This document shows, piece after piece, positions 46,510-63,451 of a DNA stretch of 64,000 nt; positions within the stretch are counted from its first letter, which is position 1, and every line of letters starts with the position of its first letter. Origin of the DNA: an uncultured Bacilli bacterium (GTDB lineage: Bacteria; Bacillota_I; Bacilli_A; RFN20; CAG-826); the NCBI GenBank assembly GCA_905235515.1, contig CAJOLV010000001.1:2170-66169 (forward strand), in the 5' to 3' direction. Under the pieces are notes generated by a model that worked only from the letters and a program-made list of their open reading frames with translations, was not told the origin of the DNA and ran no database searches. The position numbers were made by a program, and so were the translations under genes.

Positions 46510-47598
46510 ATGGAAAAAGTATCTATTAAAGAAACGTGGAACAATATGAAGGACCAAATAGTTAAACCTCATATTAGACAAGAGGCCTTCTTGTTTTTTG
46601 CTGTTTTGATTTATGCTTTTTCAGTGTTGGTGGCGACAATTATTAATTTTATTAATGACATCGCACCTCTTAAATGGATTACATTAGCTCACCTCATTGC
46701 TTTATTTGCTATGGAAGTGGTGGAATTTATCGTTTTCTCTAAATGTAAAAAGCCTACTCTTTGGCCATTTATTGTTTTAACATTGGTTTTCGGCTTTTCA
46801 ATACCTTTGTGCTATCTTTTCTTAGCCCCTTTTGATAGTTTGTATTTATTCTGGATTTATTTAATTCCGATTGTATATTTTGCTTGTTTTGGTAATAAAC
46901 GCGGTTTGATACCTAGCGCTATATTGTTCGCTATATTCTGTTTATTCCTCTTTATTCCAGGTTTGAATAAATTGACTGTCGGAGGGAAAGAACCTCAAGA
47001 TGGATATGATCTAGAAAAAGTTTTCTTTGTTTTATATTATGTCGTTTGTTGTTTTACAGGAGTCATCCTCTCGTTAGCCTATAACACAATTGTTAAAAAA
47101 CTCGATGTAGTTAAAGATATTTATTATCAAGAAGCCAACACTGATGTTGTCACAGGTTTAAGAAATCAAGCTTTCTTCTTATCATATGTGAATAAGATTA
47201 GACAAAAGAGTAAAATTGGTGACACAATCGGTTTAATGTTTATCGATATTGATGATTTCAAAGTCTATAACGATAAATATGGTCATATTGTTGGTAACCA
47301 AGTTTTAGTGGAAGTGGCAAATAGATTAAATCAAGTGCCACACGATCTCATTGTCAGATGGGGCGGTGACGAATTTGCTATCATCGAAAAGAATCTTGGC
47401 AGAGATGAATTCATCGCTAAAGCAAACTTCCTTCTCAAGTCAGTTGAAGGCATCCATAACGGAGTGACAATCTCTATCGGTCTTTCCTACTACACAATTG
47501 ATGAAAATTTCGACTTTGATAAAGTCTTTAATGAAGCGGATATGCAAGCCATCCGCGCTAAAGGAAAAGGGAAGAATTGTATCGTTATAAGTAAATAG
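46510..47598 (+). CDS. Membrane-bound GGDEF dinucleotide cyclase with variant base-specificity residues
   Basis: About six TM segments; DVVTGLRNQ, FIDIDDFKVYNDKYGHIVGNQVL, RWGGDEF; no RxxD I-site (VPHD). Confidence 0.9.
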   Translation: MEKVSIKETWNNMKDQIVKPHIRQEAFLFFAVLIYAFSVLVATIINFINDIAPLKWITLAHLIALFAMEVVEFIVFSKCKKPTLWPFIVLTLVFGFSIPLCYLFLAPFDSLYLFWIYLIPIVYFACFGNKRGLIPSAILFAIFCLFLFIPGLNKLTVGGKEPQDGYDLEKVFFVLYYVVCCFTGVILSLAYNTIVKKLDVVKDIYYQEANTDVVTGLRNQAFFLSYVNKIRQKSKIGDTIGLMFIDIDDFKVYNDKYGHIVGNQVLVEVANRLNQVPHDLIVRWGGDEFAIIEKNLGRDEFIAKANFLLKSVEGIHNGVTISIGLSYYTIDENFDFDKVFNEADMQAIRAKGKGKNCIVISK

Positions 47599-47620
47599 AA
47601 GCGGGGAACCGTTTCTTTTT
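47597..47620 (+). terminator. Terminator after the GGDEF gene
   Basis: AGAAGCGG-GGAA-CCGTTTCT-TTTT. Confidence 0.75.
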
Positions 47621-47646
47621 ATATCTTTGATATACTAAAAAAGTTT

Positions 47647-47676
47647 TTGACAAAATAATAAAAATAAATTTAATAT
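47647..47676 (+). promoter_or_regulatory. SigmaA promoter of the first TasA-like gene
   Basis: TTGACA (47647-47652), 18 bp, TAATAT (47671-47676), followed by a ~140 nt structured leader. Confidence 0.7.
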
Positions 47677-47819
47677 ATTCGTGCAAAGCAAAAGCGACTG
47701 AGACGTCCCTTCTTAGTTGGCGACACGTGATGCAAAAGTATCTATCATCCATCCAGTTAAATAAAAGATAGAATAATTGGATGATTTTTGTCGTTTATAC
47801 TAAGGAGAACAAAAATATT

Positions 47820-48734
47820 ATGAAAAAATCAAAAATTATCGTTCCTGCCCTCGGTATCCTTTTACTCTCAACAGCTGCCTCTATTTCTGGCACAGTTGCA
47901 TGGTTCACCGCAAGCAGAACATTCTCAACATCAGTCTCTGAATTTGGCGTCGGATCAATCGATGGTCAATTAAAAGCTACAGTCGCCGCTGGTGTTGGCA
48001 CAAAAGTCGGTACTAATGATAGCACAATCGAATTTGCAGTTGATGATACACCATCTGTTTTAACAGATGCTTCCTACTATTCTACTGGTCGAGTAGTTTA
48101 TACAGATGATGCTGTTGTTACAGAAGCCGGTGGAGGCACTAATACCACTGCATTCTATTTAGTTGGTACAGATGGCACACGTACCGCGGCTAACCTCAAA
48201 GCTGGTTCAAAAGATAGTAAAGATTATTATTATGCTGTTACATGGACAATCACATTAAAATATGAAGGCTCTGCTACATCTAATAATGTGCATATGTTAT
48301 TTGACAGTACAGAATCTAGTATTACAGTCACTAGCTCTTCCGAAGGTACTGATAAACATTTAGATATTGGTAATGGTATTAGATTCAACTTTGAAGTTAA
48401 TTCTGCTAGTAAAGTCAACTATGCTCCATTAAGAGAAACTTCTGGTGTTAATAATGTTGCTTCCGCTACTACTACACAAGCTACACAACAACTTATCGCT
48501 AGCGATACCACAATCACAAAATTACCAGACAATAAAACAGCCACTGTTGCAGCAACCCACAAAGAATATTTAGGTACTACTGCTCCAGATGAAAATTTTG
48601 TTGTTACAGTTACTGCTTGGTTAGAAGGTACAGATGCTGACGTGTTATCCTCACTTCTTGATCCAAATATGACAATCTCTGGCAACTTAAACTTCTATTG
48701 CAGAACCGAAGGTACAGACAGCACAGCTCTCTAA
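47820..48734 (+). CDS. SipW-signal (TasA/camelysin-like) secreted subunit A, 304 aa
   Basis: RBS AAGGAG; MKKSKIIVPALGILLLSTAASISGTVA|WFT resembles the TasA GGTWA|AFND signal; C-terminal TAWLEGTD...ISGNLNF. Confidence 0.78.
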   Translation: MKKSKIIVPALGILLLSTAASISGTVAWFTASRTFSTSVSEFGVGSIDGQLKATVAAGVGTKVGTNDSTIEFAVDDTPSVLTDASYYSTGRVVYTDDAVVTEAGGGTNTTAFYLVGTDGTRTAANLKAGSKDSKDYYYAVTWTITLKYEGSATSNNVHMLFDSTESSITVTSSSEGTDKHLDIGNGIRFNFEVNSASKVNYAPLRETSGVNNVASATTTQATQQLIASDTTITKLPDNKTATVAATHKEYLGTTAPDENFVVTVTAWLEGTDADVLSSLLDPNMTISGNLNFYCRTEGTDSTAL

Positions 48735-48753
48735 TCTAAACCATTTATAAACT

Positions 48754-48783
48754 ACACCTCGATTAATTCGGGGTGTTTTTTTA
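48754..48783 (+). terminator. Terminator after subunit A
   Basis: ACACCTCGA/TCGGGGTGT stem followed by 7 T. Confidence 0.85.
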
Positions 48784-48880
48784 TGTTATTAAGATATTGT
48801 AAGACTATGTCTTTAAAAAAAGTATTTCAAAAAATAAGTGGATGCTATAATATATACTACAAGGTGAACTTGCCTAATTT

Positions 48881-49240
48881 ATGAAAAATAAAAAACCATT
48901 ATTTATCGCCTTGATAGCTGTAGATGTCGCCATTACAGTGTTTTTATTCGTTATAAGCATTATAATGCTTGCTAAGACAGCCGGTAAGACTGCTAACGAG
49001 ATTCAAAATGCTACTGGATTAATTGGATATCTACAAAATCACCCACTCGTATATGGGTTAGCGTTTGTGGTTCCTTTATTCTTATTGTTAGCAGGCAATA
49101 TTATTGGACTAGTCATTTATGTGAAAAAAACCACTGAAAGAAAGCCAATGCAAGTTAATGATCTTAGTGAAGAGCAAAAAGAAGCTCTCAGACAAGAACT
49201 CCTTAAGGAATTACAAGAAAATAGTGAGAAAAAAGAATAG
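48881..49240 (+). CDS. Two-TM small protein resembling SipW without its catalytic domain
   Basis: TM-loop-TM-tail topology; tail DLSEEQKEALRQELLKEL matches the SipW tail ELSDKDKERLKQQLLEEM (9/18 identical); own extended -10 TGCTATAAT at 48843. Confidence 0.7.
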   Translation: MKNKKPLFIALIAVDVAITVFLFVISIIMLAKTAGKTANEIQNATGLIGYLQNHPLVYGLAFVVPLFLLLAGNIIGLVIYVKKTTERKPMQVNDLSEEQKEALRQELLKELQENSEKKE

Positions 49241-49260
49241 CGAGATATCGTTATTTTTTT
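49236..49260 (+). terminator. Terminator
   Basis: AATAGCGA-GATA-TCGTTATT-TTTTT. Confidence 0.75.
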
Positions 49261-49274
49261 ATAAAAATTAGATA

Positions 49275-49303
49275 TTGCAAGTTTAAATATATTGTGATAA
49301 TAT
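49275..49303 (+). promoter_or_regulatory. SigmaA promoter driving the riboswitch leader
   Basis: TTGCAA (49275-49280), 17 bp, extended -10 TG-A-TAATAT (49295-49303); the aptamer starts a few nt downstream. Confidence 0.8.
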
Positions 49304-49306
49304 TCA

Positions 49307-49390
49307 CTCGAGTAAAAAGCAAAACCGTAGAAATACGGCGACGCAAAACTACAGGGTCTTATTTATATAAGATAGCCAGCTGCCTTCGGG
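49307..49390 (+). ncRNA. GEMM-I (c-di-GMP-I class) riboswitch aptamer, A20 variant
   Basis: AGCAAAA-CCGTA-GAAA-TACGG-CGACGCAAAAC-TACAGGG-TCTTA/TAAGA-TAGCCAGCTGCC matches the GEMM-I layout (GNRA loop, GACGCAAA junction, 3' CCAGCTGCC). P1 CTCGAG/CTTCGGG. Position 49318 (Vc2 G20 equivalent) is A. Confidence 0.92.
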
Positions 49391-49439
49391 ATGAAACATC
49401 CTGCCAATGTATTGGATGATAGGCGCTGGCTTTTTGTTT
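49374..49439 (+). terminator. Riboswitch expression platform: terminator overlapping the aptamer (ON switch)
   Basis: AGCCAGC-T-GCCT (49374-49385, aptamer 3' strand) pairs with AGGC-GCTGGCT (49421-49431), followed by TTTTGTTT. Confidence 0.8.
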
Positions 49440-49490: not shown

Positions 49491-50324
49491 ATGGTCGAAT
49501 TAGCTTATGTAAAAAAACGGAAGAGAAGAAAATTAGTAGCAATTCTAAGTGGTATTGCTTCTTTAGCTATAGCGGTATTTATTATCGTGGCATTTCTCGG
49601 AAGATTCGTTGGAACTTTTACAGTCGCTCTGGACTCAGGAGATGTAAAGCTATCACTAGCGGAAAAGTCTTCATTTGAAGAAGCTACTTCGTACATTAAG
49701 TTCGATCAACTTCCTTCCTTCGATTTGACAACATTTACAAATCTACCGGAAGCAAGCACAATCGATAACGAACAAAGCGATTACCTCTATGGTGCTGTAC
49801 CAGATGGTAAAGGCAATTCAGTATTGAGATACTTCAAAAGTACGTTCTATGTAAAGAACACTGGTGAAATCACAGCGGATTATGATCTTAAAATCAATAT
49901 CACTAAGAATGAACCAGGCACCACAGCAAAAGGTGGATTGATTTATCTAGATACCATCTTACGCGTTATGGTGTATGAGAACAACGCAGATACAGACGAA
50001 CACAATTACAGTGTGTATGCTCACAAGAGAAGAACACCAAATACTTCGACTGTTGAAGCCGACATATTCAAAGAATATACATCATATAGCGATGAATCAG
50101 AACTTAGAGAATACGGAGAAGACTTACCGTTCCTTGCGGAAATGTTTGAAACAGATAACACTGTTGTCACATTATCCAATATAGGGTTTACCAAAGGTGA
50201 AACAAAAAGATACACAATTGTTACTTGGCTCGAAGGTGAAGACATCGATGCCCAAGGAAATCCCCCGAAAGGTGGAAATTTAAAGTTAGGAGTTACAATT
50301 AACGCTTATGAAAACACAAAATAA
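49491..50324 (+). CDS. TasA-like paralog B with a non-canonical (basic + TM) N-terminus
   Basis: KKRKRRK plus a TM helix; shares YFKSTFYVKN, LDTILRVMV and TIVTWLEGED...LKLGV motifs with the other four paralogs. Start uncertain (49446 or 49491); 49407 lies upstream of the attenuator. Confidence 0.7.
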   Translation: MVELAYVKKRKRRKLVAILSGIASLAIAVFIIVAFLGRFVGTFTVALDSGDVKLSLAEKSSFEEATSYIKFDQLPSFDLTTFTNLPEASTIDNEQSDYLYGAVPDGKGNSVLRYFKSTFYVKNTGEITADYDLKINITKNEPGTTAKGGLIYLDTILRVMVYENNADTDEHNYSVYAHKRRTPNTSTVEADIFKEYTSYSDESELREYGEDLPFLAEMFETDNTVVTLSNIGFTKGETKRYTIVTWLEGEDIDAQGNPPKGGNLKLGVTINAYENTK

Positions 50325-51258
50325 AAAGAAAATCATTGTTTCTACGCTAGCTCTTGCAATGGGTGCTGCTTTAGCAGGTTCCATTTCAGGATCTGTCGCG
50401 TGGTATCAATATTCCACACGTGCCGCTGCACAAATTGCAGGTACTTCTGCTGGAACAGTTGGTGAATTGCAAATTAGAGGTGCTAAACATGGCCAAGAAT
50501 TAGACGAAGGCAACGATAGCAACTATTTAGAATTAGGTACAGAAAATTACAAACCAATGTCTATGTATATAGTAGATAGTGAAACTGGTGCTAAGAAGTA
50601 TGTCCACAACCCAGTTTATCAAGTTCAAGAATCCAAAGCTTATAGTGAAAGTGAAACCCCACACTATATTGACTACGATTTACAATTCAAATTTGAACAT
50701 AGAGAAACAGACGCTGCTTTATTAGCGAAAAATGTTTATTTATCCAGATTAGAAATCGTCGCTGCCAGTGATGCTACAGCTGATATCTCCAAAGCAGTCA
50801 GAGTCGAATTCCTTAATGGCGATACATGCAAAGCTTTCTTAGCAAAAGAAAGTGCACAAGTTACAGACACACAAGGTCAATTAGATTTAAATGGTAATGG
50901 TGTTAAAGACGCTATGGATTTTGATTGCCAAGACACAAACACAACCAAAATCAACTATATGAACAAAGCCGAAACTGGTTTAACTTATACAACCGATGCT
51001 TTCGCTGACAAGATTGTTGACACAACCGCTACTAATTTTGATCCATATGACATCGAAACGCTCCAAGCTGGTAAATCATTAATTACAACCAAAGATTCTG
51101 ATGGTGGTTGGTCTGATACATTAACAGTTAGAATTTGGCTCGAAGGTTGGGCATTATTAGGTGCTTCCGGTTCTGAAAGTGCCGATTGGCCAACTGATTA
51201 CATTGGACAAAACTTCAATGTTAATATGCAATTCGTCTGCTCTGCAGTCGCACAATAA
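50308..51258 (+). CDS. SipW-signal TasA-like subunit C, 316 aa
   Basis: LAGSISGSVA|WYQY signal; DISKAVRVEF; RIWLEGW...FNVNMQF. Confidence 0.78.
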   Translation: MKTQNKKKIIVSTLALAMGAALAGSISGSVAWYQYSTRAAAQIAGTSAGTVGELQIRGAKHGQELDEGNDSNYLELGTENYKPMSMYIVDSETGAKKYVHNPVYQVQESKAYSESETPHYIDYDLQFKFEHRETDAALLAKNVYLSRLEIVAASDATADISKAVRVEFLNGDTCKAFLAKESAQVTDTQGQLDLNGNGVKDAMDFDCQDTNTTKINYMNKAETGLTYTTDAFADKIVDTTATNFDPYDIETLQAGKSLITTKDSDGGWSDTLTVRIWLEGWALLGASGSESADWPTDYIGQNFNVNMQFVCSAVAQ

Positions 51259-51292
51259 TCTTAGTAAACACAAAAATAAATAGATACAAGAA

Positions 51293-51334
51293 TTCAAGGG
51301 TAAAGTTACGTACTTACGCGACTTTGCCCTTGAA
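51293..51334 (+). other. 19 bp intergenic stem-loop without a plus-strand U-tract (candidate mRNA stabiliser/processing site)
   Basis: TTCAAGGGTAAAGTTACGT-ACTT-ACGCGACTTTGCCCTTGAA followed by AAAA. Confidence 0.6.
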
Positions 51335-51374
51335 AAAACTCTATTAAATAAAATTTAAAAGAAAGGATACACGC

Positions 51375-52514
51375 ATGAAGACCAAAATGAGATGGCATTT
51401 ATTACCAATCATCGGCGGCTTAATTACGTTCGCAGCTTTTGTGGGCTCAATTAGCGGCTCTCTTGCTTGGTGGGCATACTCAACCAGAGTCTCAGTTCAA
51501 TACCAAGGTACTTCTGTCGCAACATCTGTCCAATTACAAATTGGATTAAAAACTGAAGATTTCAGTGATAGTGATGTAGCACAATTGACCGCTCTTGGCA
51601 TGACTGAAGACACTGACTTAGCGTCTGGTAATACGAGATATTTATTCTCTAAAGCTGGTGCTGGTTTGCCTGAACGCACAATTGCCACTTATTTGCAAAT
51701 TCAAGGCGATTACTCGATCAATACATTGTATCCTGTCACCACTAGACAACATAAAATTGGTGACGAATTAAAACTATATCGTCCTTTAATTAAAGGAACC
51801 CCAGACAATTTACAACTTACAACTACAAATAGATACGTAAAAATTCCATTTGTTTTCCGTGTTGTTACATTAAATGAAAACGAACCAGTCAAGAACCAAT
51901 ATATTTGGTTAACTCATGTTGGCGTTGAGGCTAATAGCCCGAATTCCCATATTAGAGAAGCTGTTAGAATGTATATGGATAATGGTTTGACCAAATACAT
52001 TATTAATCCTACAGACGAAAGTGTTGAATCTGTTGGCGCTACTAAAGTATTTGGATTATTAGACTTAGATACAAATGGATATTATGACCAAGATGTAAAT
52101 GGTAAAGAAATCGTTTATGGACAATATACAGGTAATCCTAACGATACCTTTGTTCCTACAAGCGACACTCTTGACAATATTAATGGTGTTAGTGACACCA
52201 CTAATCAAACATCTTTCTATGCAAAGCATAAAGCTGGCAACACTTGTTATAATTCATTATCTGGTATTGATACCAGTGATGGCTTAAATGGTTTAGCCCA
52301 ATATAGACCTATGGGCTATATGATTCCGGAAGACAAGCCAGGAGGCTTTGATGAATATGAAAAAGCAATCTGTCAAACTGGTAATGACGCTAATGCATTA
52401 GCAGAACTAGATATGACAGTGTATCTCGAAGGATGGGATCATTCAGTTGTTGATGAAGAATTAGGATATGGTTTTAATTTAGGACTACAATTCCAGATTA
52501 ATTTCGTAAACTAA
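51375..52514 (+). CDS. SipW-signal TasA-like subunit D, 379 aa
   Basis: FVGSISGSLA|WWAY signal; HIREAVRMYM; TVYLEGWD...FNLGLQF. Confidence 0.78.
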   Translation: MKTKMRWHLLPIIGGLITFAAFVGSISGSLAWWAYSTRVSVQYQGTSVATSVQLQIGLKTEDFSDSDVAQLTALGMTEDTDLASGNTRYLFSKAGAGLPERTIATYLQIQGDYSINTLYPVTTRQHKIGDELKLYRPLIKGTPDNLQLTTTNRYVKIPFVFRVVTLNENEPVKNQYIWLTHVGVEANSPNSHIREAVRMYMDNGLTKYIINPTDESVESVGATKVFGLLDLDTNGYYDQDVNGKEIVYGQYTGNPNDTFVPTSDTLDNINGVSDTTNQTSFYAKHKAGNTCYNSLSGIDTSDGLNGLAQYRPMGYMIPEDKPGGFDEYEKAICQTGNDANALAELDMTVYLEGWDHSVVDEELGYGFNLGLQFQINFVN

Positions 52515-52515
52515 T

Positions 52516-53655
52516 ATGAACAGAAAAAGAATCATAACTACGAGTTTAATAGGCTCAATCGGGTTGACCGTATTGAGCTTATCTTTGTCTTTTGCGTGGT
52601 ATAATTCTTCGGAAAATTTATATCTCGATACATTAACTATTAATATATCATCTTCTCGTGATTTAAGGATTGCGACAACCCCTGATGAAACTAAATTAGT
52701 TACATCACTTCAATATAAGATGGACGCTCTTGATTCTGAAAATTCCTTAGAGAACAAGAATCCATTCAAACCAGTCTCGACAATGTTTAAATCGAACTGG
52801 ATTAATGAAAAAAAACAAGACCCGGTATTTTATGAATATACCAGTGCGATTATGGATGAAAATGATGAGCCAATACCAACAGTGGTTGATGATAGTTGGG
52901 GATATTATTCACAACACCTCTGGCTATACTGTGACCGCGATACAAAAGTAACCATTGACTCAACAACATTCAATCTCAACCCAGTGTTTAGGAGCAATGA
53001 AGTTCGCGCTGAACAATTACTCAATTCTGTCTATATCCGTGATCAATATGAACTTGAACACCCAGATTGGACAGATGAACAAATTCTAGAAGACATCATC
53101 GAAAACTTGAACAACCTAGTCAAATGTATGAGAATGAGTATTCTAGATCCAGACTTAGATAATTATAGCTACACAATTTTAGATCCTTTGAAGGATGGAG
53201 AAACTGAATTAGGTGGTAGAGAAGACTTGTTCCTCTCTGGCTACTATGATTCATATTCCAAACTCAATGCATCTAATGAATTTGAGTGGTATGAAATATT
53301 ATATGGAGAGATTAAAAACCGTGATAAAGCTGTTTATAACGAAGCTCTCCCAGATGAAATCCCAGCAGTGGGAACTAAAACATCATTCAATGCATCGACA
53401 AAAGAAAATGTTCATGCATTCAATAAAGAAGCCAGCATTGCTAATGGATTAGAAATCGTAAAAGAAGATTCCATTTCATTAGATGAATTGGAAGAAAAAT
53501 TCCAAGTTAAATTAAAAGCTGGGCAATTAAAAGAAATTGTCCTATCCATATATATGGAAGGATGGGACCTTGATTGTGTAAATAGCCATATGGGAGGAAG
53601 CTTCGGTATGGATCTCCAATTCAAGGTCGCAGAAATGAACGATCAAGACGATTAA
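52516..53655 (+). CDS. SipW-signal TasA-like subunit E, 379 aa
   Basis: LSLSLSFA|WYNS signal; NLVKCMRMSI; SIYMEGWD...FGMDLQF. Confidence 0.75.
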   Translation: MNRKRIITTSLIGSIGLTVLSLSLSFAWYNSSENLYLDTLTINISSSRDLRIATTPDETKLVTSLQYKMDALDSENSLENKNPFKPVSTMFKSNWINEKKQDPVFYEYTSAIMDENDEPIPTVVDDSWGYYSQHLWLYCDRDTKVTIDSTTFNLNPVFRSNEVRAEQLLNSVYIRDQYELEHPDWTDEQILEDIIENLNNLVKCMRMSILDPDLDNYSYTILDPLKDGETELGGREDLFLSGYYDSYSKLNASNEFEWYEILYGEIKNRDKAVYNEALPDEIPAVGTKTSFNASTKENVHAFNKEASIANGLEIVKEDSISLDELEEKFQVKLKAGQLKEIVLSIYMEGWDLDCVNSHMGGSFGMDLQFKVAEMNDQDD

Positions 53656-53669
53656 AGGAGAAATGCTAT

Positions 53670-55187
53670 ATGACTGCTTATTTCGAATATTTACGAGAAT
53701 TAGTAACTAGATTCTTCTCAGACTTAGGAAGATTTTTTGCTAAAGCATTTGGTTCACCATGGGCGGATGTTCCAGGTAACTTCGAAGCATATAATTCTTT
53801 CTTAGCATCTCATAAAGATCAATTTGGTTTTGGTGGCTGGCTATTATTTGTGGTTTTCCTTCTCCTTGTTATCGCACTTATTGGTGGGGCCCTTTTTGGT
53901 CTATTCATTTTAATAAGAAAGTATGTTCGTTTCGTTAGAAAAGAACTCGATAAAGATGAATTAAGAGCACAAGTTGAAAGACTTAATTATGAACTCTATC
54001 AAGCTATCACTGAAAAAGATAAAATCTTGAACTTAAAAACAACATATATGGGTGTTAAACCTGAAGATATGAAAAAAGAAGACAAAGAAACCCTCGATGA
54101 AATCTCTTCACGTTTCCCAAAACTTGTTCGTGTTGACAATCAATACAAAGGTGTTGACCTCACAATTCCTAATAAAGATGGCTTATCTTTAGAAGAATTA
54201 TGTAATGCTTTTAGAAACTTCGCTGCTAGTCAATTTGGTCTCTACTACCGTATTGATACAATCAGACAAATGTTTGCGGGTATTGCTACCTCTAAGTTAA
54301 TCATCTTAGAAGGTATCTCTGGTACAGGTAAAACATCCTTATCTTATGCATTAGGTAAATTCTTCGCCTTTGATTCTGCAATCATTCCAGTTCAACCATC
54401 TTGGAAAGACCGTTCGGAATTATTAGGTTACTATAATGAATTCACAAAGAAGTTTAATGAATCTGAATTCTTAAAAGCCTTATATGTTACAACATATCGT
54501 AAAGAATTAGATGTCATCGTTCTCGATGAAATGAACTTAGCTCGTATTGAATATTACTTTGCAGAATTCTTATCTGTTATGGAAATGAGAGATACCTCCG
54601 ATTGGTTAATCGACTTAATTCCAGCTGTGCAAGAAGGCGATCCACAACACTTAAGAGATGGTAAATTATTAATTCCACAAAACGTCATCTTCTTTGGCAC
54701 CGCCAATAACGATGACTCTACATTTACTATTTCTGATAAGGTTTACGACAGAGCAATCTCCCTCTTCTTTGACGATAAAGGTCGTCCATTTGAAGCTGAA
54801 CGTCAAGATGCTATATCTATTCCATATCAACAACTTAAAACATTATTCGATGAAGCGATTAACCAATATCCAATCTCTGAATCTATGTTAGACAAGTTCT
54901 CTCAATTAGATAACTTTGTCATTAAGAAATTCAAGTTAGCCTTTGGTAACCGTATTTTGAAACAATTAGATTCCTTTATCCCAGTTTATATTTCCTGTGG
55001 TGGTAAAGAAGTTGATGGTTTTGACTTCATCTTTACAAATAAAATTTTGAAGAAATTTGAATCCTTAAATATCGCTTTCTTCAAAGACGAATTAAAAGAA
55101 TTAAGTGGTCAATTAGACAAATTATACGGAAAGAACACTTTCCCAATGGCGCATCGTTATATCGATGATTTAATCAAGAACAACTAG
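53670..55187 (+). CDS. McrB-like AAA+ NTPase with an N-terminal TM helix and coiled coil
   Basis: Walker A GISGTGKT, VQPSWKDRSELLGYYN, Walker B LDEMNLARIEYYF, McrB-type GTANNDD...KVYDRA; TM at aa ~56-82. Confidence 0.85.
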   Translation: MTAYFEYLRELVTRFFSDLGRFFAKAFGSPWADVPGNFEAYNSFLASHKDQFGFGGWLLFVVFLLLVIALIGGALFGLFILIRKYVRFVRKELDKDELRAQVERLNYELYQAITEKDKILNLKTTYMGVKPEDMKKEDKETLDEISSRFPKLVRVDNQYKGVDLTIPNKDGLSLEELCNAFRNFAASQFGLYYRIDTIRQMFAGIATSKLIILEGISGTGKTSLSYALGKFFAFDSAIIPVQPSWKDRSELLGYYNEFTKKFNESEFLKALYVTTYRKELDVIVLDEMNLARIEYYFAEFLSVMEMRDTSDWLIDLIPAVQEGDPQHLRDGKLLIPQNVIFFGTANNDDSTFTISDKVYDRAISLFFDDKGRPFEAERQDAISIPYQQLKTLFDEAINQYPISESMLDKFSQLDNFVIKKFKLAFGNRILKQLDSFIPVYISCGGKEVDGFDFIFTNKILKKFESLNIAFFKDELKELSGQLDKLYGKNTFPMAHRYIDDLIKNN

Positions 55188-55205
55188 AAATAATTAGCAA
55201 ATCCC

Positions 55206-57245
55206 ATGCAAAAAAACAGAAATCGCACATTATTTAAGAAATTAGTGAGTAAGATTAACACTCTTAACGGAGAAAAGGATGTCTCCGATATTTCGCGTGA
55301 TTTAAAGCATGGTAAAAACACCTACATGAGATTAGACCGACTAGAGTCTAGCAGCTTTGATATGGTGTGGATTAAACGTATCGAAGATTGTATTTATGAT
55401 TTAGGTGCGATTGTTGGTAATCCAAGACAAGTGACTAAAACAGTCGGCAACATTGTTCCAGTTGAATTAGCGAAAAAAATCAACTCGGAAAGTGTTATGC
55501 ACTTAGCAAGCCACACCCAATATATTAAAGACATCACTGAAAATGGCGATGTTGTTCCAAATAAAATTCTCAATATGGGCGCTGAAGAAGACATCCATAC
55601 TTATGAGAATAGATTCATTGCTACCCTTATTAGAAGATTAGTACTCTTTGTTGAAAAGAGATATGAGTTCGTCAAAAAGTTTGCTCCTCTCCATGATGAG
55701 GAGATTTTGTATTTTAAAAACAAATCCATCGTCGATGGGGCAGAAGTAGAAATTGAAACTAAGATTAAGGTCAAGAGCGAATCTCAAACCACTATGGCGG
55801 AGACTTCCAATAAATACATTGACCGTATTATGAAGATTAGAGAATACATCTTATACTTCTATGGTTCTAATTTTATGAGAGAACTAAAGACTGAAAGAGA
55901 TGTGCGTAATCCAATCGTCATGACTAACATCTTAAGAAAGAATCCAAAATATCATAAATGTTATGAATTATATCGTTTCATTGAAAAATATGAAGGTTTA
56001 GGTGTGTCTTATAAAGTTGATGAAAATATCGCTAATTTTGATGAGCAAGATTTGAAAGAAATGAACGCAGTGATGCTCGCTAACTATTTAGCCTTGAAAT
56101 CAAAGGATAAGAAGCCTCCTCTTAAACATAACACCAAACAATATAAACCACGTATTCTCACCTCTCTTGATGACGAAGAATTTGTTTATGGTGATCTTTA
56201 TAAAGGCCCAATCGAATTCATGCGTATCGATAAGGGCTATATCGAATATCTTGAATCTTTAGTGAAGAAAGATTTACCAGTCCACCCAACTAAGATTGAA
56301 AAAGAATATTACAAAGAAGAATATCAACAAAAGACTGAAGTTAAAACTATTAAAAACGCAATCGAAAAGACTCTTAAAAGAAAACAAAAAGAACAAAATG
56401 AGTTCGATAAGAAGGCCAAAACCATTATCGCTCTTAGAGAGAAAGAAGAAAGAGAGCGTATTGCTGCTGAACAAGAAGCCGCACGTCTTAAAGAAGAAGA
56501 AAGAATTGAAGCGATTCGTCGTCAACTCATTGAATCCGCAAAAGCGGAACAACCAGTGGAAGAAGAACCAGTTGTTAGTGAAGAGGAAGAACTCGTTATT
56601 AGAGATATTCCTGTTTATGAAGAACCAGTTCAAGAAGAAACCCCTGTTGAACCTGAATCAATAAAAGAATCTGTTATTGAAGAACCTCAAGAGGAAGTTT
56701 TACCTGTGGAAGAAACAGATGAAACTCCTGTTAAAATAGTGGAAGAACAACCTCAAGAACAACCATTGGAAGAGATTGTTGAACAAGAAGAACCACAACC
56801 TGAAGTTATTGAAGAAACTCCAGCGGAAGAACCTGCTCCAGAACAAGAACCAGTTAAGAAACCACATAAGCCAAGAAAACCAAGAGCAAAACCTGCTCCA
56901 GTTGTCGAAGAGGTGCCAGTGGAGGAACCTGCGCCAGTTGAACCAGAACCAACTCCAGAACCAGAACCAGAAATAATTGAAGAAAAACCAGTTTCTGCGG
57001 CGGTTTTAAATAAACCAAAGAAAAAACCTGCTCCAAAGAAAAAGCGCAAACCAGCGCCTAAGAAGGTCAAAGAAGAACCAAAATTAGAACCAATTCCGGG
57101 TCGCTTTATCGTCAAGACTGGCCAAGGTTATTATGTGAAAAAGAATAAATATTCTATTTATAAACATGAAGCATGGGTCTTTGATGATTTCAATGAAGCC
57201 AATCAATTAAAGAACACCTTAGGTGGTAAGGTGGTTAAATTATGA
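55206..57245 (+). CDS. DUF2357 (McrC N-terminal-like) protein with a coiled coil and an acidic Glu/Pro-rich tail; no nuclease domain seen
   Basis: TYENRFIATLIRRL and LRKNPKYHKCYELYRF are DUF2357-type motifs; directly follows the McrB-like gene; C-terminal half is low complexity. Confidence 0.75.
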   Translation: MQKNRNRTLFKKLVSKINTLNGEKDVSDISRDLKHGKNTYMRLDRLESSSFDMVWIKRIEDCIYDLGAIVGNPRQVTKTVGNIVPVELAKKINSESVMHLASHTQYIKDITENGDVVPNKILNMGAEEDIHTYENRFIATLIRRLVLFVEKRYEFVKKFAPLHDEEILYFKNKSIVDGAEVEIETKIKVKSESQTTMAETSNKYIDRIMKIREYILYFYGSNFMRELKTERDVRNPIVMTNILRKNPKYHKCYELYRFIEKYEGLGVSYKVDENIANFDEQDLKEMNAVMLANYLALKSKDKKPPLKHNTKQYKPRILTSLDDEEFVYGDLYKGPIEFMRIDKGYIEYLESLVKKDLPVHPTKIEKEYYKEEYQQKTEVKTIKNAIEKTLKRKQKEQNEFDKKAKTIIALREKEERERIAAEQEAARLKEEERIEAIRRQLIESAKAEQPVEEEPVVSEEEELVIRDIPVYEEPVQEETPVEPESIKESVIEEPQEEVLPVEETDETPVKIVEEQPQEQPLEEIVEQEEPQPEVIEETPAEEPAPEQEPVKKPHKPRKPRAKPAPVVEEVPVEEPAPVEPEPTPEPEPEIIEEKPVSAAVLNKPKKKPAPKKKRKPAPKKVKEEPKLEPIPGRFIVKTGQGYYVKKNKYSIYKHEAWVFDDFNEANQLKNTLGGKVVKL

Positions 57246-58087
57246 GCAAGGCCAAAGAGAAAAAGCCAAAGAGTAAAGTCAGAGTAATTTTTGAATGGGT
57301 GATCACCATCTTATTTGGTGGTCTATTCATCTTTTTCGCCATCGGCCAAATCACTGGCATGGTTCATAAAAAAGAGAATTATGGAGAAACCCTCTCCTTT
57401 GGTTATGGTAGCTTTATTATCAAAACCGATTCCATGGAGCCTGAATATAAAATCGGGACAGCAATTGTCACTTATAAAGCTGAACCAGAAGTTATTTTTG
57501 AAAAATACACAAACGGAGAAACCGTTGATATCACATTCTATGATTGCTTTGATCATAATCGTAGCCAATATAATTATGATTTAGTCACACCTACCGACAC
57601 TGAATTAACGGAAAGAACTTATTCCCTTAATCAAGTGATGACCCATAGATTAAGAGAGATTGTCGTTCGTGATGATGTGGAATTAGGCCAAGGTAAATAC
57701 ACATTTGTCGTTTCTGGCACTAATATTTCTGAACACCAAGCACAGAAAGGTCAATATCAGTTATTAACTGAAAACGAACTTCTTGGTATAGTAAAAGTGA
57801 ACTCAAAAGTTTTAGGTGGATTTTTTAGATTCGTTTCTTCACCTTGGGGACTACTTGTATTCTTACTCGTTCCAGCCTTCTATCTTGTTATCACTAGTGT
57901 TCTAGATATCTTTAAAGCAATTAAAGAACCAGAAGAAGGAGAAACTCCAAAAGAAGTAGTGGACGCTCAACCAAAACAAGCTAATGCTTCCTTAGAAGAA
58001 TTATCTGATAAAGATAAAGAGAGATTAAAGCAACAATTACTTGAAGAAATGATCAACAAGAAGAGAGGAGATAACAATGGGAAATAA
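57242..58087 (+). CDS. sipW: SipW-type (ER/archaeal-type, S26B) signal peptidase I
   Basis: N-terminal TM; GYGSFIIKTDSMEP (catalytic Ser); VMTHRL (His); ELLGIV; C-terminal FVSSPWGLLVFLLVP TM; ATGA overlap with the upstream stop. Confidence 0.85.
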   Translation: MSKAKEKKPKSKVRVIFEWVITILFGGLFIFFAIGQITGMVHKKENYGETLSFGYGSFIIKTDSMEPEYKIGTAIVTYKAEPEVIFEKYTNGETVDITFYDCFDHNRSQYNYDLVTPTDTELTERTYSLNQVMTHRLREIVVRDDVELGQGKYTFVVSGTNISEHQAQKGQYQLLTENELLGIVKVNSKVLGGFFRFVSSPWGLLVFLLVPAFYLVITSVLDIFKAIKEPEEGETPKEVVDAQPKQANASLEELSDKDKERLKQQLLEEMINKKRGDNNGK

Positions 58088-59630
58088 AAAACTACATTTA
58101 GCATTCGCAATATTGTTCTCTGGTCTTTTTATTGGAACAGCTATAGCTTTGCTCGTTTTCGTTTTTAAGGGAACATATAACGATTATCCAATTATTTCTG
58201 TTTTGTTCATCTTTGTCGCCTTATTAACCGCATTGACTGCGATGTATTTCTTAATTAAATACAATACCATTCGCGCCGAATTAAAAACGGTGATTAATGA
58301 TAACATATATAACTTAGGTGAAAAGACCGCCTTTTTTGGTGTGACAGCCTTTGCTAAACGTGTTAACCGTTTAAATAGAAATCGTCGTTTAGCACAAAAG
58401 AAACAATATGTAATAGCTTTTACAGCAGCGAACTTATCAACAACTCAAAATCCTAATAGAGATGACTCTGTCACTTTATTAAATGCTCGTATTGCTTCTT
58501 TCTTATCTAGTTTTGTTCACATCACCAAATCTAATAATAGTCGTAAGAGAAGAAAAGATAGAGTGGTTTGTTTTAATCGTGGTTCCTTCTTAGTCTATTT
58601 ATTCTTAGATAACGAACACGATGTGAGACATATTGTTGATGAGATTTCTAATAATATTTTTGAAATTGCCGAACAATACCAAATCCATATTTATGTTCAA
58701 CCCTTCTTTGGTGTCGCAGAAATTGAAGAAAATAAACCATTATTAGAATCTATTGAAGACGCAAATATCGCAAGAAACGTCTCTGAACGTAACTTTGAAA
58801 CTTTAACTTATTACCATGACTCCTTTAGAAGAAGATCATCCAAAGAAGAAGTAAAAGAAATTGCAGAAGCTTTGGCGAATAATGAATTCGTTGTTTACTA
58901 TCAACCAAAATTTAATCTCAGCACAAGAAGATTTATCTCCTCTGAAGCTTTAGTGAGATGGAATAGTAAAAAACATGGTTTGTTATCTCCTAATAAATTT
59001 ATCCCAGTTGTTGAAGCAGCAGGTTTAATTCATGAAATTGATACCTTCGTTTTTAAACGCGTTTGTGAAGATTTAAACGAAGCAAAAAGAAAGGGAAGAA
59101 GAATGTTACCAGTCTCTATTAACTTCTCCTTATATGAGTTCTATTCCTCTGAATTTTTAAATCACATCATTGATTTGCTGGATAAATATCAAATTAATTC
59201 ATCTTATATTGAAATTGAAATTACCGAAGCAACATCTCGTGCGAATACTTTTACTGCTATCTCGATTATCAAGAAATTAAGAGATAAAGGTATCCGTGTT
59301 TTAATGGATGACTTTGGTGTTGGCTTCTCTAATATTAACAACTTAAAAAAGATACCTTTTGATGCGGTCAAAATTGATAAATCATTTATCGATGATATTG
59401 CGACAGATTTAAAAAGTAGAGCGATTGTGAAATTCTTAATCGAATTATGTTTAGCAAACGATTTAGAAGTTATCGCTGAAGGTGTTGACAATAAAGAACA
59501 AGTTGAAATATTAAAGAAACTCAAATGTAACACAATTCAAGGATTTTATTATTCCAAAGCTTTACCACAAAAAGAATATGAACAATTCCTTCTTAATAAC
59601 CCGTTTGAAAGAAAGGAGAGTAGTAACTAA
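58077..59630 (+). CDS. Membrane-anchored EAL phosphodiesterase with a degenerate GGDEF domain
   Basis: YYQPK, SEALVRW, EIEITE, MDDFGVGFS, KIDKSF and AEGVD all intact; the GGDEF position reads NRGSF. Confidence 0.9.
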   Translation: MGNKKLHLAFAILFSGLFIGTAIALLVFVFKGTYNDYPIISVLFIFVALLTALTAMYFLIKYNTIRAELKTVINDNIYNLGEKTAFFGVTAFAKRVNRLNRNRRLAQKKQYVIAFTAANLSTTQNPNRDDSVTLLNARIASFLSSFVHITKSNNSRKRRKDRVVCFNRGSFLVYLFLDNEHDVRHIVDEISNNIFEIAEQYQIHIYVQPFFGVAEIEENKPLLESIEDANIARNVSERNFETLTYYHDSFRRRSSKEEVKEIAEALANNEFVVYYQPKFNLSTRRFISSEALVRWNSKKHGLLSPNKFIPVVEAAGLIHEIDTFVFKRVCEDLNEAKRKGRRMLPVSINFSLYEFYSSEFLNHIIDLLDKYQINSSYIEIEITEATSRANTFTAISIIKKLRDKGIRVLMDDFGVGFSNINNLKKIPFDAVKIDKSFIDDIATDLKSRAIVKFLIELCLANDLEVIAEGVDNKEQVEILKKLKCNTIQGFYYSKALPQKEYEQFLLNNPFERKESSN

Positions 59631-63300: not shown

Positions 63301-63420
63301 AATCCTGATCAATATATCTTAATTAGAGATATGGATAAGAAGTCTAACTGCCAAGGTTATCACTTCTATAAACCATTAGATGATTACCACTTAATCGAAG
63401 AGATTAGAAAGAATCGTTAA
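60370..63420 (+). CDS. 1016 aa membrane sensor: degenerate GGDEF, GAF, PAS(Cys), degenerate GGDEF, degenerate EAL
   Basis: Two TM; CPKAKIGDKCY...EPCQGCP; LQPMV...GAEILIRL, FEITE, but DDFGTG reads DQYSGE and AEGVE reads FVGVE; no intact GG(D/E)EF. Confidence 0.8.
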   Translation: MKKKQREITIARSFALSFIIPGAILVATLFISIVLFILASRLDNNIFLIVGLVVVGVFTIAYAATSTVFFHRLIKVYQNGLYKTTASLLRGLKQNIPTADNYPKTNIKEMNELRDELNDVNIITSNSTLISHDLSEAYIPLNYISEEDSIVTLESFKTELRALIYSSQNYRNAIVEVFYDLEDDIITEEEGKRIIEVLKDSFLNYSHLLFIPNEDQTGFFMFLPKVDSISNIRDRLESALKNISIAKKTFDGITTINARFSVVCYPYSNINELFSDLRYAKRQGQALNVYLPSRLAALSENRVLQNSLNLNHMSRVMEKLSDLKVTFKEKDKSVRTIKNTLSDLITYLGIDCAGIISFDDVNNTYNATISVERDTTPVFPEGTLIEKRFINAIDSARDPDDSYYFSTRKHTPFEVGNFLDKIGVFSGFYYIIHDQTHVISVIYFFNKAKDLIIDSYIRETIFLLSYRIGDFFFMLNEEQKIDETYKEINGVLMSSDYTLYRIDRNNYNLVGYSSHFPTICPKAKIGDKCYHTIYGLDEPCQGCPLRANKKMLSTIRNKTYETSLTLNESNIRLVRLLMHNVKDSEDTTDRFDKDLLINSYSSLNISLEDLYSINARGYLIVLRMDNHDQLLHDTGSEGTLYLTRQLIKNIKDIRRANANIYYFSPESIAVLMPEVGQVDVVNFIEEIYEVSKNKYQYNGLDYQFNITYLPYNFPQAYPTADGFLKYVLRHFNSLQFEINADKIFFPDGDYSRSASRNEFILSVIDEQFGNKTFSVALQPMVNSETKNIYGAEILIRLSDNYRNQVFNADELIKVAARNGKISMISNALIQYIGELYKQYGLTIFKLYGFKRLTMNTDFSYFDDPDFFTTIYNLFEEYHLPKEFLGFEITEREIYTHLDQFRKVARGILNHHIVLICDQYSGEFLSMDTLKELGFIEIKIGRYLVGDIEVNPKHLSEISSIDKLATEHGLRTTFVGVENPDQYILIRDMDKKSNCQGYHFYKPLDDYHLIEEIRKNR

Positions 63421-63423
63421 TAC

Positions 63424-63451
63424 AAAAATTGTGCAGAAATGCACTTTTTTT
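63424..63451 (+). terminator. Terminator ending the fibre/c-di-NMP operon
   Basis: GTGCA-GAAA-TGCAC stem flanked by A- and T-tracts. Confidence 0.75.

Follow-up and report, generated by a model that had tools for sequence, protein, structure and literature searches.

The question raised by this locus is whether a membrane-bound GGDEF enzyme and a riboswitch encoded downstream of it communicate through cyclic GMP-AMP (cGAMP) instead of cyclic di-GMP (c-di-GMP). The locus lies in a 64,000-nt stretch of DNA from an uncultured gut bacterium, an Erysipelotrichaceae-like member of the Bacilli, hereafter called the window, and its features are collected in Table 1. An original prediction, made from the sequence alone, had proposed that enzyme and sensor shifted together in specificity, given an Asn at a base-reading position of the cyclase and an A at position 49318 of the riboswitch. 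As described below, the Asn-type GGDEF enzymes appear to be an undescribed subclass and the locus looks like a conserved cyclic-dinucleotide module. Since both cyclase and sensor are altered at guanine-reading positions, the module may use cGAMP in place of c-di-GMP, and signalling by cGAMP, or mixed signalling, is a reading to which we give slightly less than an even chance.

Table 1. Features of the cyclase–riboswitch module, in coordinates of the window
Feature	Position	Strand	Remarks
Membrane GGDEF cyclase, 362 aa	46510..47598	+	MASE6-like multi-pass N-terminus, then GGDEF domain; Asn-type subclass
Gln220 codon, CAA	47167..47169	+	PleD Arg300 / GacA Tyr304, cross-dimer position
Asn263 codon, AAC	47296..47298	+	PleD Asp344 / GacA Ser348, reader of the Watson-Crick edge of the substrate base
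GGDEF motif, residues 285-289	47362..47376	+	Central residue Asp; RW just before
Terminator-like hairpin and T-run	47597..47625	+	Directly after the cyclase gene
Conserved structured leader with its own terminator-like hairpin	47677..47795	+	Upstream of gene 47820-48734
Secreted protein	47820..48734	+	SipW-type-looking signal peptide (SISGTVAWF); no Pfam family; syntenic in related loci
Small membrane / coiled-coil protein, 119 aa	48881..49240	+	Counterparts of 91-137 aa at the same place in related loci covering the position
GEMM-I aptamer, A20 / A47 / C92 type	49308..49387	+	RF01051, 61.7 bits (gathering score 35), E 1.2e-9
Expression platform, intrinsic terminator	49374..49439	+	Predicted fold; near-invariant across 9 loci
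Four beta-rich secreted proteins	49491..53655	+	SipW-type-looking signal peptide
AAA_5 ATPase (505 aa) and 679-aa protein	53670..57245	+	ATPase syntenic in loci reaching that far
SipW-like signal peptidase I, 281 aa	57242..58087	+	NCBIfam NF046067, E 6.1e-10
Membrane EAL phosphodiesterase	58077..59630	+	Pfam EAL, E 5.5e-71; catalytic motifs intact
1016-aa protein with degenerate EAL domain	60370..63420	+	Candidate receptor; DDFG motif and general-base Glu lost
Terminator-like site	63431..63444		After the 60370-63420 gene

Active site of the cyclase and its conservation

The membrane N-terminus of the cyclase matches MASE6 weakly (Pfam, E 4.8e-4) and is followed by a GGDEF domain at residues 209-356 (Pfam PF00990, E 8.9e-32); the sequence reads DIDDFKVYNDKYGHIVGNQVL. 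The top match among solved structures is GacA, the Hypr GGDEF enzyme of Geobacter (6d9m), and in this alignment GHIVGNQVL lies opposite GHLVGSQVL, and TGLRNQ opposite TGLFNY. The alignment thereby sets Asn263 against GacA Ser348 (PleD Asp344) and Gln220 against GacA Tyr304 (PleD Arg300), and so bears out both replacements named in the original prediction, that is, Asn for the specificity Asp and Gln for the Arg of the DxLTGLxNR motif. In our own register against PleD numbering, D246, D248, K251, N254, R283, GGDEF (285-289) and K351 are all kept, and the I-site position reads VPHD, with RxxD absent; intact metal ligands, an intact GGDEF motif and a missing I-site had likewise been foreseen. With its domain match, metal-binding Asp residues, Lys, GG[DE]EF motif containing the general-base Glu and C-terminal Lys, the protein has the appearance of a competent GGDEF enzyme.

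The cross-dimer Arg stacks on guanine and is present in 94% of diguanylate cyclases (PMC6456294). The defining feature of Hypr enzymes is a Ser or Thr at the specificity position; such enzymes make up some 0.17% of GGDEF domains and come mainly from deltaproteobacteria and related groups (PMC9140294). They carry GGDE[F/Y], never GGEEF, and their cross-dimer residue is usually not Arg; where that residue is Tyr, Ser, Ala or Gln, cGAMP is the main product (PMC6456294). Judged from the aligned residues, the cyclase departs from the canonical diguanylate cyclase pattern (Asp at PleD-344, cross-dimer Arg) at both base-reading positions, through Asn263 and Gln220, which speaks for cGAMP, and Gln220 is more telling in this respect than the original prediction recognised. 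It has GGDEF, not GGEEF, and a non-Arg cross-dimer residue, as Hypr enzymes do, but it falls outside the published Hypr definition because its residue at PleD-344 (GacA-348) is Asn and not Ser or Thr. In publications on Hypr enzymes and on the active sites of GGDEF domains, we found no report of an Asn variant at the PleD-344 position or of its product, in agreement with the original caveat that the product of such variants is not known; the primary PNAS or Cell Reports structure papers may mention one.

Both replacements are conserved. Asn263 and Gln220 are invariant in all 49 orthologues of the cyclase (46-100% identity), D246, D248, K251, N254, R283 and K351 are invariant across the family, and Asp287 of the GGDEF motif is nearly so, the exception being a sister protein of the same architecture (P0384), which has Asp, Arg and GGEEF. 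Relatives at only 26-34% identity keep the Asn, with Gln, His or Asn at the cross-dimer position. Beyond the family, Arg is absent from 7 of 8 unrelated Asn-type GGDEFs (from Thermoanaerobaculia and one Bacillota MAG), while the Asp-type domains in the same comparison comprise 71 with Arg and 9 without (Fisher p = 1.3e-5 versus Asn-type). One related locus (L088) contains a second GGDEF gene that runs off the end of the locus, and a search with the 100-aa N-terminal fragment of this gene product, meant to show whether the clade also has a canonical Asp-type cyclase, gave no match.

The riboswitch and the genes downstream

The original prediction had placed a riboswitch 1.7 kb downstream of the cyclase, with A at 49318, and the RF01051 match agrees on both counts: the aptamer starts 1.7 kb past the cyclase stop, and model position 11, an unpaired consensus G that precedes a G-C pair, is here A49318, followed by G49319 and C49320. 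This A occupies the Vc2 G20 position (A20), and A47 (49345) and C92 (49383) are retained, which is the sequence pattern of GEMM-Ib. Over 12 orthologous aptamers, 99.1% of cells were paired and 7 pairs were altered on both sides, a covariation value reached in none of 500 shuffles, and the aptamer structure is thus supported by compensatory changes across the 12 copies. The P1b stem varies freely in this compensatory way while A20 stays fixed. In the predicted fold of the expression platform, the 3′ strand of the aptamer doubles as the 5′ arm of the terminator (49374-49386), whose 3′ arm (49421-49431) is followed by a U-run. Because the one strand serves both structures, an ON switch is predicted, and the riboswitch looks like the switch of an operon of about 14 kb. 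The cyclase gene itself looks monocistronic, as a terminator-like hairpin and T-run adjoin its end.

A20 was present in 12 of 12 distinct readable loci, every one alongside an Asn cyclase; the co-occurrence in related genomes that the original prediction had suggested checking holds at all of them. However, these loci share a single gene family and one syntenic module, so that the pairing is inherited and does not represent 12 independent events. At one locus (L212), the cyclase gene and the riboswitch operon sit together in different genomic surroundings. Of the GEMM-I matches in a metagenome sample, 5 of 110 (4.5%) had A20, as did 3 of 18 (17%) on contigs below 40% GC. None of the loci with an unrelated Asn-type GGDEF (L018, L028, L030, L031, L047, L049, L058, L081) had a GEMM-I nearby, and our own GEMM-I model, run over 1.4 Mb of loci, gave just one unrelated match, in a Thiobacillus locus (L038). 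The enzyme-sensor pairing thus has no independent replicate, nor a G20 control beside a canonical sister.

The four secreted-protein genes behind the riboswitch span 49491 (or 49407)-50324, 50308-51258, 51375-52514 and 52516-53655, and the secreted protein encoded between cyclase and riboswitch shares with them, by eye, the signal peptide and a WLEG motif. No Pfam or NCBIfam family was found for the secreted proteins, and an AlphaFold model of the riboswitch-controlled secreted protein (pLDDT 84) had no PDB fold match at E <= 0.001; in Erysipelotrichaceae MAGs the post-riboswitch family is annotated only as 'hypothetical'. The region of the ATPase and the 679-aa protein matches PADLOC PDC-M26A (E 1.3e-39), and the SipW-like peptidase scores 39 bits with the SipW model, below the cut-off of 190. 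Aligned with DosP, the membrane EAL protein reads EALVR, N, EIEITE, DDFGVG, KIDKSF, AEGVD and QGF, that is, an apparently complete set of active-EAL motifs with conservative changes in DDFGVG and EGVD. The original prediction had taken this enzyme for a standard c-di-GMP phosphodiesterase, which suits its canonical motifs but is less secure for its substrate, at least one EAL enzyme having been reported to degrade cGAMP.

The leader that precedes the first secreted-protein gene was recovered with our own covariance model as one copy in each of 11 loci (73-143 bits) and shows some covariation; an Rfam search with it returned only noise. In a distant relative (L211), a GEMM-I aptamer lies at the corresponding place.

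The signal and its alternatives

In the circuit that we propose, the membrane-anchored Asn-type cyclase would produce the signal, and with a relaxed, Hypr-like purine specificity this would be 3′,3′-cGAMP, probably plus some c-di-GMP. In the aptamer that senses it, A20 would face the adenine of this product and C92 its guanine; the retention of C92 points to a ligand that contains one guanine or more (PMC6140456). Ligand binding would then relieve the intrinsic terminator and switch on the roughly 14-kb operon, the output of which would be the SipW-type-looking secreted proteins and the SipW-like peptidase, with the active EAL phosphodiesterase providing negative feedback and the degenerate EAL protein as a possible receptor. 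Against cGAMP, an Asn can still accept a guanine hydrogen bond, and the EAL enzyme of the operon is ordinary, such enzymes usually being c-di-GMP-specific. Of the proposed co-shift of enzyme and sensor, what stands is the joint conservation of Asn and A20 (12 of 12 loci, with relatives down to 26-34% identity); cGAMP as the signal stays an inference, as the affinity of A20 aptamers for c-di-GMP can equal or exceed that for cGAMP.

The strongest competitor is a conventional c-di-GMP circuit of reduced affinity, in which a GTP-only Asn/Gln cyclase would bind its substrate more weakly, for example so as to follow the GTP pool, the A20 aptamer would respond in the nanomolar instead of the picomolar range, and the EAL proteins would degrade and sense c-di-GMP. 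GGDEF, EAL and GEMM-I are after all the standard c-di-GMP toolkit, and the EAL protein has canonical catalytic motifs. The aptamer also leaves room for it, as A20 by itself leaves both Vc2 G20A and Cbe 1-2 of Clostridium beijerinckii bispecific, c-di-GMP being bound well via a protonated adenine: Vc2 G20A binds c-di-GMP at 53 nM and cGAMP at 120 nM, and Cbe 1-2 at 30 and 463 nM, a 15-fold preference for c-di-GMP (PMC6140456). The latter case bears out the original caveat that A20 aptamers of Firmicutes can still bind c-di-GMP. Moreover, A20 is not rare in low-GC DNA, as the 3 of 18 matches above indicate, and some Asn-type GGDEFs, in large multidomain proteins, retain Arg or have GGEEF. What a c-di-GMP circuit leaves unexplained is the joint loss of two guanine contacts, kept over deep divergence while the sister keeps both, together with the loss of Arg in independent Asn lineages; furthermore, Asp at PleD-344 is conserved in strict c-di-GMP producers (PMC9140294). 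We regard this circuit as a serious possibility, though one clearly below an even chance.

It is improbable, by contrast, that the GGDEF protein is a membrane scaffold or nucleotide sensor with no cyclase activity in vivo, the riboswitch ligand coming from another enzyme. The model would be Staphylococcus GdpS, a Bacilli membrane GGDEF protein that works without its catalytic motif, but the interface residues of GdpS are reportedly restricted to Staphylococcaceae (PMC11962490). The cyclase matches the GdpS model about equally to other GGDEF models, and the second GGDEF gene at L088 could be such another source; yet the metal, phosphate and catalytic residues are all invariant across the family, and the cyclase gene travels with the riboswitch operon, as at L212. 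Least probable of all is another product, either c-di-AMP or an inosine- or xanthosine-containing dinucleotide, which would parallel the shift of GTPases toward xanthine nucleotides: an Asp-to-Asn specificity switch is established for the NKxD motif of G proteins, but cells normally contain very little ITP and XTP. Hypr GGDEFs can use other purine NTPs as well, and some c-di-AMP is among their products (PMC6456294, PMC9140294), but the aptamer keeps C92, and c-di-AMP binding was obtained only with a G20A/C92U double mutant (PMC7288161).

Returning to cGAMP, a broader proposal is that Asn-type GGDEFs with a non-Arg cross-dimer residue could be a further path by which nature arrived at hybrid or cGAMP cyclases, in addition to the Ser/Thr Hypr enzymes. 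The present locus could then be a self-contained cGAMP module (cyclase, A20 riboswitch, EAL phosphodiesterase and degenerate EAL receptor, with the leader as a further sensor) for a new SipW-dependent surface fibre of gut Firmicutes. We put this forward tentatively, and on balance would sooner doubt it.

Relation to known systems and implications

The closest parallel is the Hypr GGDEF enzyme GacA of Geobacter with the GEMM-Ib cGAMP riboswitches, reportedly the work of Hallberg (2016 and 2019), Kellenberger (2015) and Nelson (2015). As in GacA, the specificity Asp and the cross-dimer Arg are both replaced and the central motif residue is Asp; as in the Geobacter GEMM-Ib riboswitches, position 20 is A, C92 is kept, and the riboswitch would control extracellular-surface functions. 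The cyclase differs from GacA in having Asn rather than Ser/Thr, no I-site, and a MASE6-like membrane input instead of a receiver domain. Furthermore, the host is Firmicute-type and not a deltaproteobacterium, cyclase and riboswitch are adjacent in one module, and the operon has an EAL enzyme where the Geobacter system has an HD-GYP enzyme. With Cbe 1-2 (Clostridia) and Vc2 G20A the aptamer shares the A20/C92 combination, here too in low-GC Gram-positive DNA, but those aptamers have no known non-canonical cyclase partner, whereas this one is paired with an Asn cyclase. The grouping of a SipW-like peptidase with several SipW-type-looking secreted proteins recalls the tapA-sipW-tasA biofilm fibre operon of Bacillus subtilis, although the secreted proteins are without a Pfam family or PDB fold match, the peptidase lies below the family cut-off, and control is by a riboswitch and not by SinR. 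In Clostridioides difficile, c-di-GMP riboswitches control pili and adhesins, likewise a case of cyclic-dinucleotide ON switches for surface structures in a gut Firmicute, with a different riboswitch subtype and different cargo genes.

So far, GGDEF-made cGAMP signalling is known from the Ser/Thr Hypr enzymes (PMC9140294). For the many A20 GEMM-I aptamers found in Firmicutes no cGAMP source is known, and an Asn-type cyclase beside an A20 aptamer would supply one. If cGAMP is indeed the signal, the sequence rule for predicting GGDEF products would be widened, and the locus would offer a compact module in which to study the co-evolution of enzyme and sensor specificity. If instead the cyclase makes only c-di-GMP, then guanine selectivity would be possible without the specificity Asp and without the cross-dimer Arg.

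The cyclase and its specificity residues

In its N-terminal half the cyclase crosses the membrane several times and matches MASE6 weakly. Among solved structures the top match, by a small margin, was the Geobacter Hypr enzyme GacA (6d9m), an alignment that lays GHIVGNQVL of the cyclase over GHLVGSQVL and TGLRNQAFF over TGLFNYRYL. The sequence quoted in the original prediction is present, and the structure alignment places an Asn at the PleD Asp344 position, as had been proposed. The replacement of the DxLTGLxNR arginine by Gln and the lack of an I-site (VPHD, not RxxD) were likewise borne out, while the metal-binding Asp residues, Lys251, Asn254, Arg283, GGDEF (285-289) and Lys351 are all retained; the PleD-numbered register is our own reading of the structure and orthologue alignments.

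According to the Hypr papers, Asp at the specificity position is conserved in strict c-di-GMP producers, Hypr enzymes (0.17% of GGDEF domains) are defined by Ser or Thr there, and a Ser-to-Asp change brings back GTP specificity (PMC9140294; PMC6456294). Of the predicted diguanylate cyclases, 94% have the cross-dimer Arg, which reaches into the active site of the partner subunit and stacks there on guanine; cGAMP is the main product of Hypr enzymes that have Tyr, Ser, Ala or Gln instead, whereas those with Arg make more c-di-GMP (PMC6456294). Our literature search found no description of Asn at the specificity position, although the primary Hypr paper may mention it.

A search of 5.8 billion proteins gave 49 aligned full- or near-full-length relatives (46-100% identity), all from metagenome or MAG assemblies, after which scores fell steeply to generic GGDEF proteins. 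Asn263, Gln220 and GGDEF are unchanged throughout this alignment, and the next 70 matches, which lie outside the family, have Asp at the specificity position in all but one, which has Asn. When 1.84 billion cluster representatives were scanned without a profile, seven more distant proteins were added that agree with the cyclase in length and architecture (P0245, P0246, P0249, P0256, P0259, P0277 and P0301; 26-34% full-length identity). All have Asn and GGDEF, and their cross-dimer residue is Gln, His or Asn. The sister protein P0384, of like architecture, has Asp, Arg and GGEEF.

Eight unrelated Asn-type GGDEF genes were present in the GTDB loci that the family profile retrieved: six from Thermoanaerobaculia MAGs (L018, L030, L031, L047, L049, L081), one from a Bacillota MAG (L028) and one from a member of the Solirubrobacterales (L058). 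Seven lack the cross-dimer Arg (H, H, A, A, E, G or D instead), and seven, L058 being the exception, retain the RxxD I-site. Of the Asp-type domains in the same loci, 71 have the Arg and 9 lack it (Fisher p = 1.3e-5 versus Asn-type). This comparison is tempered in that the six Thermoanaerobaculia genes probably belong to a single family and that the scan patterns were biased to RWGGDEFA. Since certain Asn-type domains within large multidomain proteins retain Arg or carry GGEEF, the pairing of Asn with a missing Arg is a tendency, not a rule. Asn at the PleD-344 position also occurs in P0101, a Paraburkholderia GGDEF-EAL protein. Separately, L088, a locus of a related genome, has a second GGDEF gene (1-302, minus strand; 406 aa, membrane N-terminus) adjoining pmbA/tldD, of whose product the locus covers the first 100 residues only.

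The riboswitch and its expression platform

c-di-GMP-I was the sole Rfam family above threshold across the whole 64-kb window. Model position 11, an unpaired consensus G immediately 5′ of a G-C pair, is the Vc2 G20 position, and the Rfam alignment upheld the predicted A there (49318); the equivalents of A47 (49345) and C92 (49383) are retained. Each locus that extends as far as the riboswitch contains exactly one GEMM-I, and all 12 distinct copies (window, L003, L083, L085-L090 and the distant L211, L212 and L213) have A in the G20 column. Covariation was pronounced, with 99.1% of cells paired, seven pairs changed on both sides and the observed values reached in 0 of 500 shuffles. Because the P1b stem varies by compensatory changes while A is found in all copies, the aptamer is under selection, with A20 kept as the other ligand-contact bases are. 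As a rough background rate, a pattern scan of JGI metagenomes allowing A or G returned A20 in 5 of 110 distinct matches (4.5%), and in 3 of 18 in contigs below 40% GC. The association between Asn-cyclase and A20 riboswitch is thus strong but unreplicated, since the 12 loci represent one inherited module rather than independent events and no GEMM-I was found within the eight loci of unrelated Asn-type genes.

Downstream, 49374-49386 (AGCCAGCUGCCUU) pairs with 49421-49431 (AGGCGCUGGCU) to form a terminator followed by a U-run, a platform nearly invariant in nine loci. Its 5′ arm is also the 3′ strand of the aptamer, so that ligand binding should block termination, predicting an ON switch. For the first operon gene the longest ORF begins at 49407, within this terminator, but the lengths of its orthologues (272-279 aa) point to the in-frame ATG at 49491 as the true start.

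The predicted operon and a second conserved leader

Gene order is conserved: metG, CDP-alcohol phosphatidyltransferase, formate/nitrite-type transporter, cyclase, one secreted protein, small membrane protein, riboswitch, four secreted proteins and AAA_5 ATPase. In L212 the cyclase-to-ATPase module has different neighbours and thus travels as a unit. In a simple scan, the first intergenic plus-strand terminator-like hairpin after the riboswitch lies behind the last gene, and the transcript may therefore be about 14 kb long; short plus-strand hairpins inside coding sequences were discounted as noise.

Features of the cyclase-riboswitch region (window coordinates) and leader copies in comparison loci
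Feature	Position	Strand	Remarks
GGDEF cyclase gene, 362 aa	46510-47598	+	Pfam GGDEF, residues 209-356, E 8.9e-32
Gln220 codon CAA	47167-47169	+	GacA Tyr304 / PleD Arg300 (cross-dimer), 6d9m alignment
Asn263 codon AAC	47296-47298	+	GacA Ser348 / PleD Asp344, 6d9m alignment
Terminator-like site of cyclase gene	47597-47616		then T-run
Structured leader	47677-47795	+	5′ of first secreted-protein gene; own terminator-like hairpin
c-di-GMP-I (GEMM-I) aptamer	49308-49387	+	Rfam 61.7 bits
Four secreted-protein genes	49491-53655	+	beta-rich; N-terminal SISGSVAW[YF]; no Pfam family
AAA_5 ATPase (505 aa) and 679-aa protein	53670-57245	+	
SipW-like signal peptidase I, 281-aa membrane protein	57242-58087		NCBIfam E 6.1e-10, weak, under family cut-off
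Membrane EAL phosphodiesterase	58077-59630	+	catalytic motifs intact
MTA/SAH-nucleosidase-like protein (PNP_UDP_1)	59630-60364		between two EAL genes
1016-aa membrane protein, degenerate EAL	60370-63420		EIL; CDQYSG for DDFGTG; Val for general-base Glu
Intergenic terminator-like hairpin	63431-63444	+	
Leader, L003	12435-12552		
Leader, L083	8046-8163		
Leader, L085	11226-11344		
Leader, L086	11189-11307		
Leader, L087	11162-11280		
Leader, L088	12836-12953		
Leader, L089	11217-11335		
Leader, L090	11238-11356		
Leader, L212	3424-3534		
Leader, L215	2400-2508		

By eye, the four secreted proteins and that of 47820-48734 share their N-terminal motif and a C-terminal WLEG[WE]D. The family of the 50308-51258 protein has no Pfam or NCBIfam assignment, and its members in Erysipelotrichaceae MAGs are labelled just 'hypothetical'. 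AlphaFold gives this protein a confident, beta-rich model (pLDDT 84, pTM 0.80), with no PDB fold match at E <= 0.001. The ATPase matches, over part of its length only, the PADLOC candidate-defence model PDC-M26A (E 1.3e-39), and the L083 counterpart of the 679-aa protein has a faint DUF2357 match. A defence role is doubtful, because the ATPase is syntenic in the riboswitch operon wherever the locus reaches that far. The peptidase hints at secretion and fibre formation of the SipW/TasA kind. The 1016-aa protein, in which a GGDEF domain was looked for and not detected, probably serves as a receptor for cyclic dinucleotides and not as an enzyme.

With our own covariance model the leader is matched in 11 loci, a single time per locus and at 73-143 bits, and an Rfam search with it gave no match. 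Its core is GCAAAGCRAAAGCGA, followed by a hairpin (loop GUCCC) and UUGGCGACAYGYGAUGCAAAA, after which comes a terminator-like hairpin, AUCAUCCAUYCAG...UUGGAUGAU, with a U-run. It is a candidate new riboswitch-like element. The distant L211 has an A20 GEMM-I aptamer where the leader would lie, downstream of the cyclase and ahead of the next gene, which makes the leader a candidate further sensor of the cyclase circuit.

The signalling nucleotide and the role of the module

We tentatively read the signal as cGAMP or a hybrid, at a little under an even chance. The enzyme has lost two contacts that read guanine, and both replacements persist over deep divergence in a Hypr-like pattern, Gln220 being a residue also seen in cGAMP-producing Hypr enzymes. 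The adjacent sensor carries the single base substitution that cGAMP binding requires and keeps C92, which pairs with guanine. The aptamer has the sequence features of GEMM-Ib, from which selectivity is not readable. The proposed joint shift of enzyme and sensor gains support from the co-conservation of the cyclase residues with A20; its cGAMP reading is tempered by A20 aptamers that bind c-di-GMP equally or more tightly.

Plain c-di-GMP signalling, in which both changes merely lower affinity, is a real and only slightly less likely alternative. The GGDEF/EAL/GEMM-I toolkit is the standard one, and A20 aptamers bind c-di-GMP through an adenine that is protonated, with 53 nM for c-di-GMP versus 120 nM for cGAMP in Vc2 G20A and 30 versus 463 nM in Clostridium beijerinckii Cbe 1-2 (PMC6140456). 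The operon's EAL enzyme is also ordinary, an argument weakened by VcEAL, which is reported to degrade both nucleotides. Against a non-catalytic, GdpS-like scaffold, which is unlikely, speak catalytic residues that do not vary and a gene linked to the riboswitch. Least likely of all are other cyclase products; c-di-AMP is an improbable riboswitch ligand, its binding having required a G20A/C92U double mutant (PMC7288161).

With cGAMP or a hybrid as signal, the system would work like the Geobacter pair of GacA and GEMM-Ib, but its specificity residue is Asn, not Ser or Thr, and the cyclase therefore lies outside the Hypr family as published. It stands for an Asn-type subclass of GGDEF domains, so far undescribed, in which the cross-dimer Arg tends to be lost along with the Asp. 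The cyclase signal would turn the A20 riboswitch ON and with it the genes for secreted proteins and a peptidase, for an EAL enzyme that would provide negative feedback and for a degenerate-EAL protein that may be a receptor. In this the operon resembles that of tapA-sipW-tasA fibres, with a riboswitch in control. In these uncultured gut Bacilli, an Asn-type cyclase physically coupled to an A20 riboswitch would control an uncharacterised family of secreted proteins.
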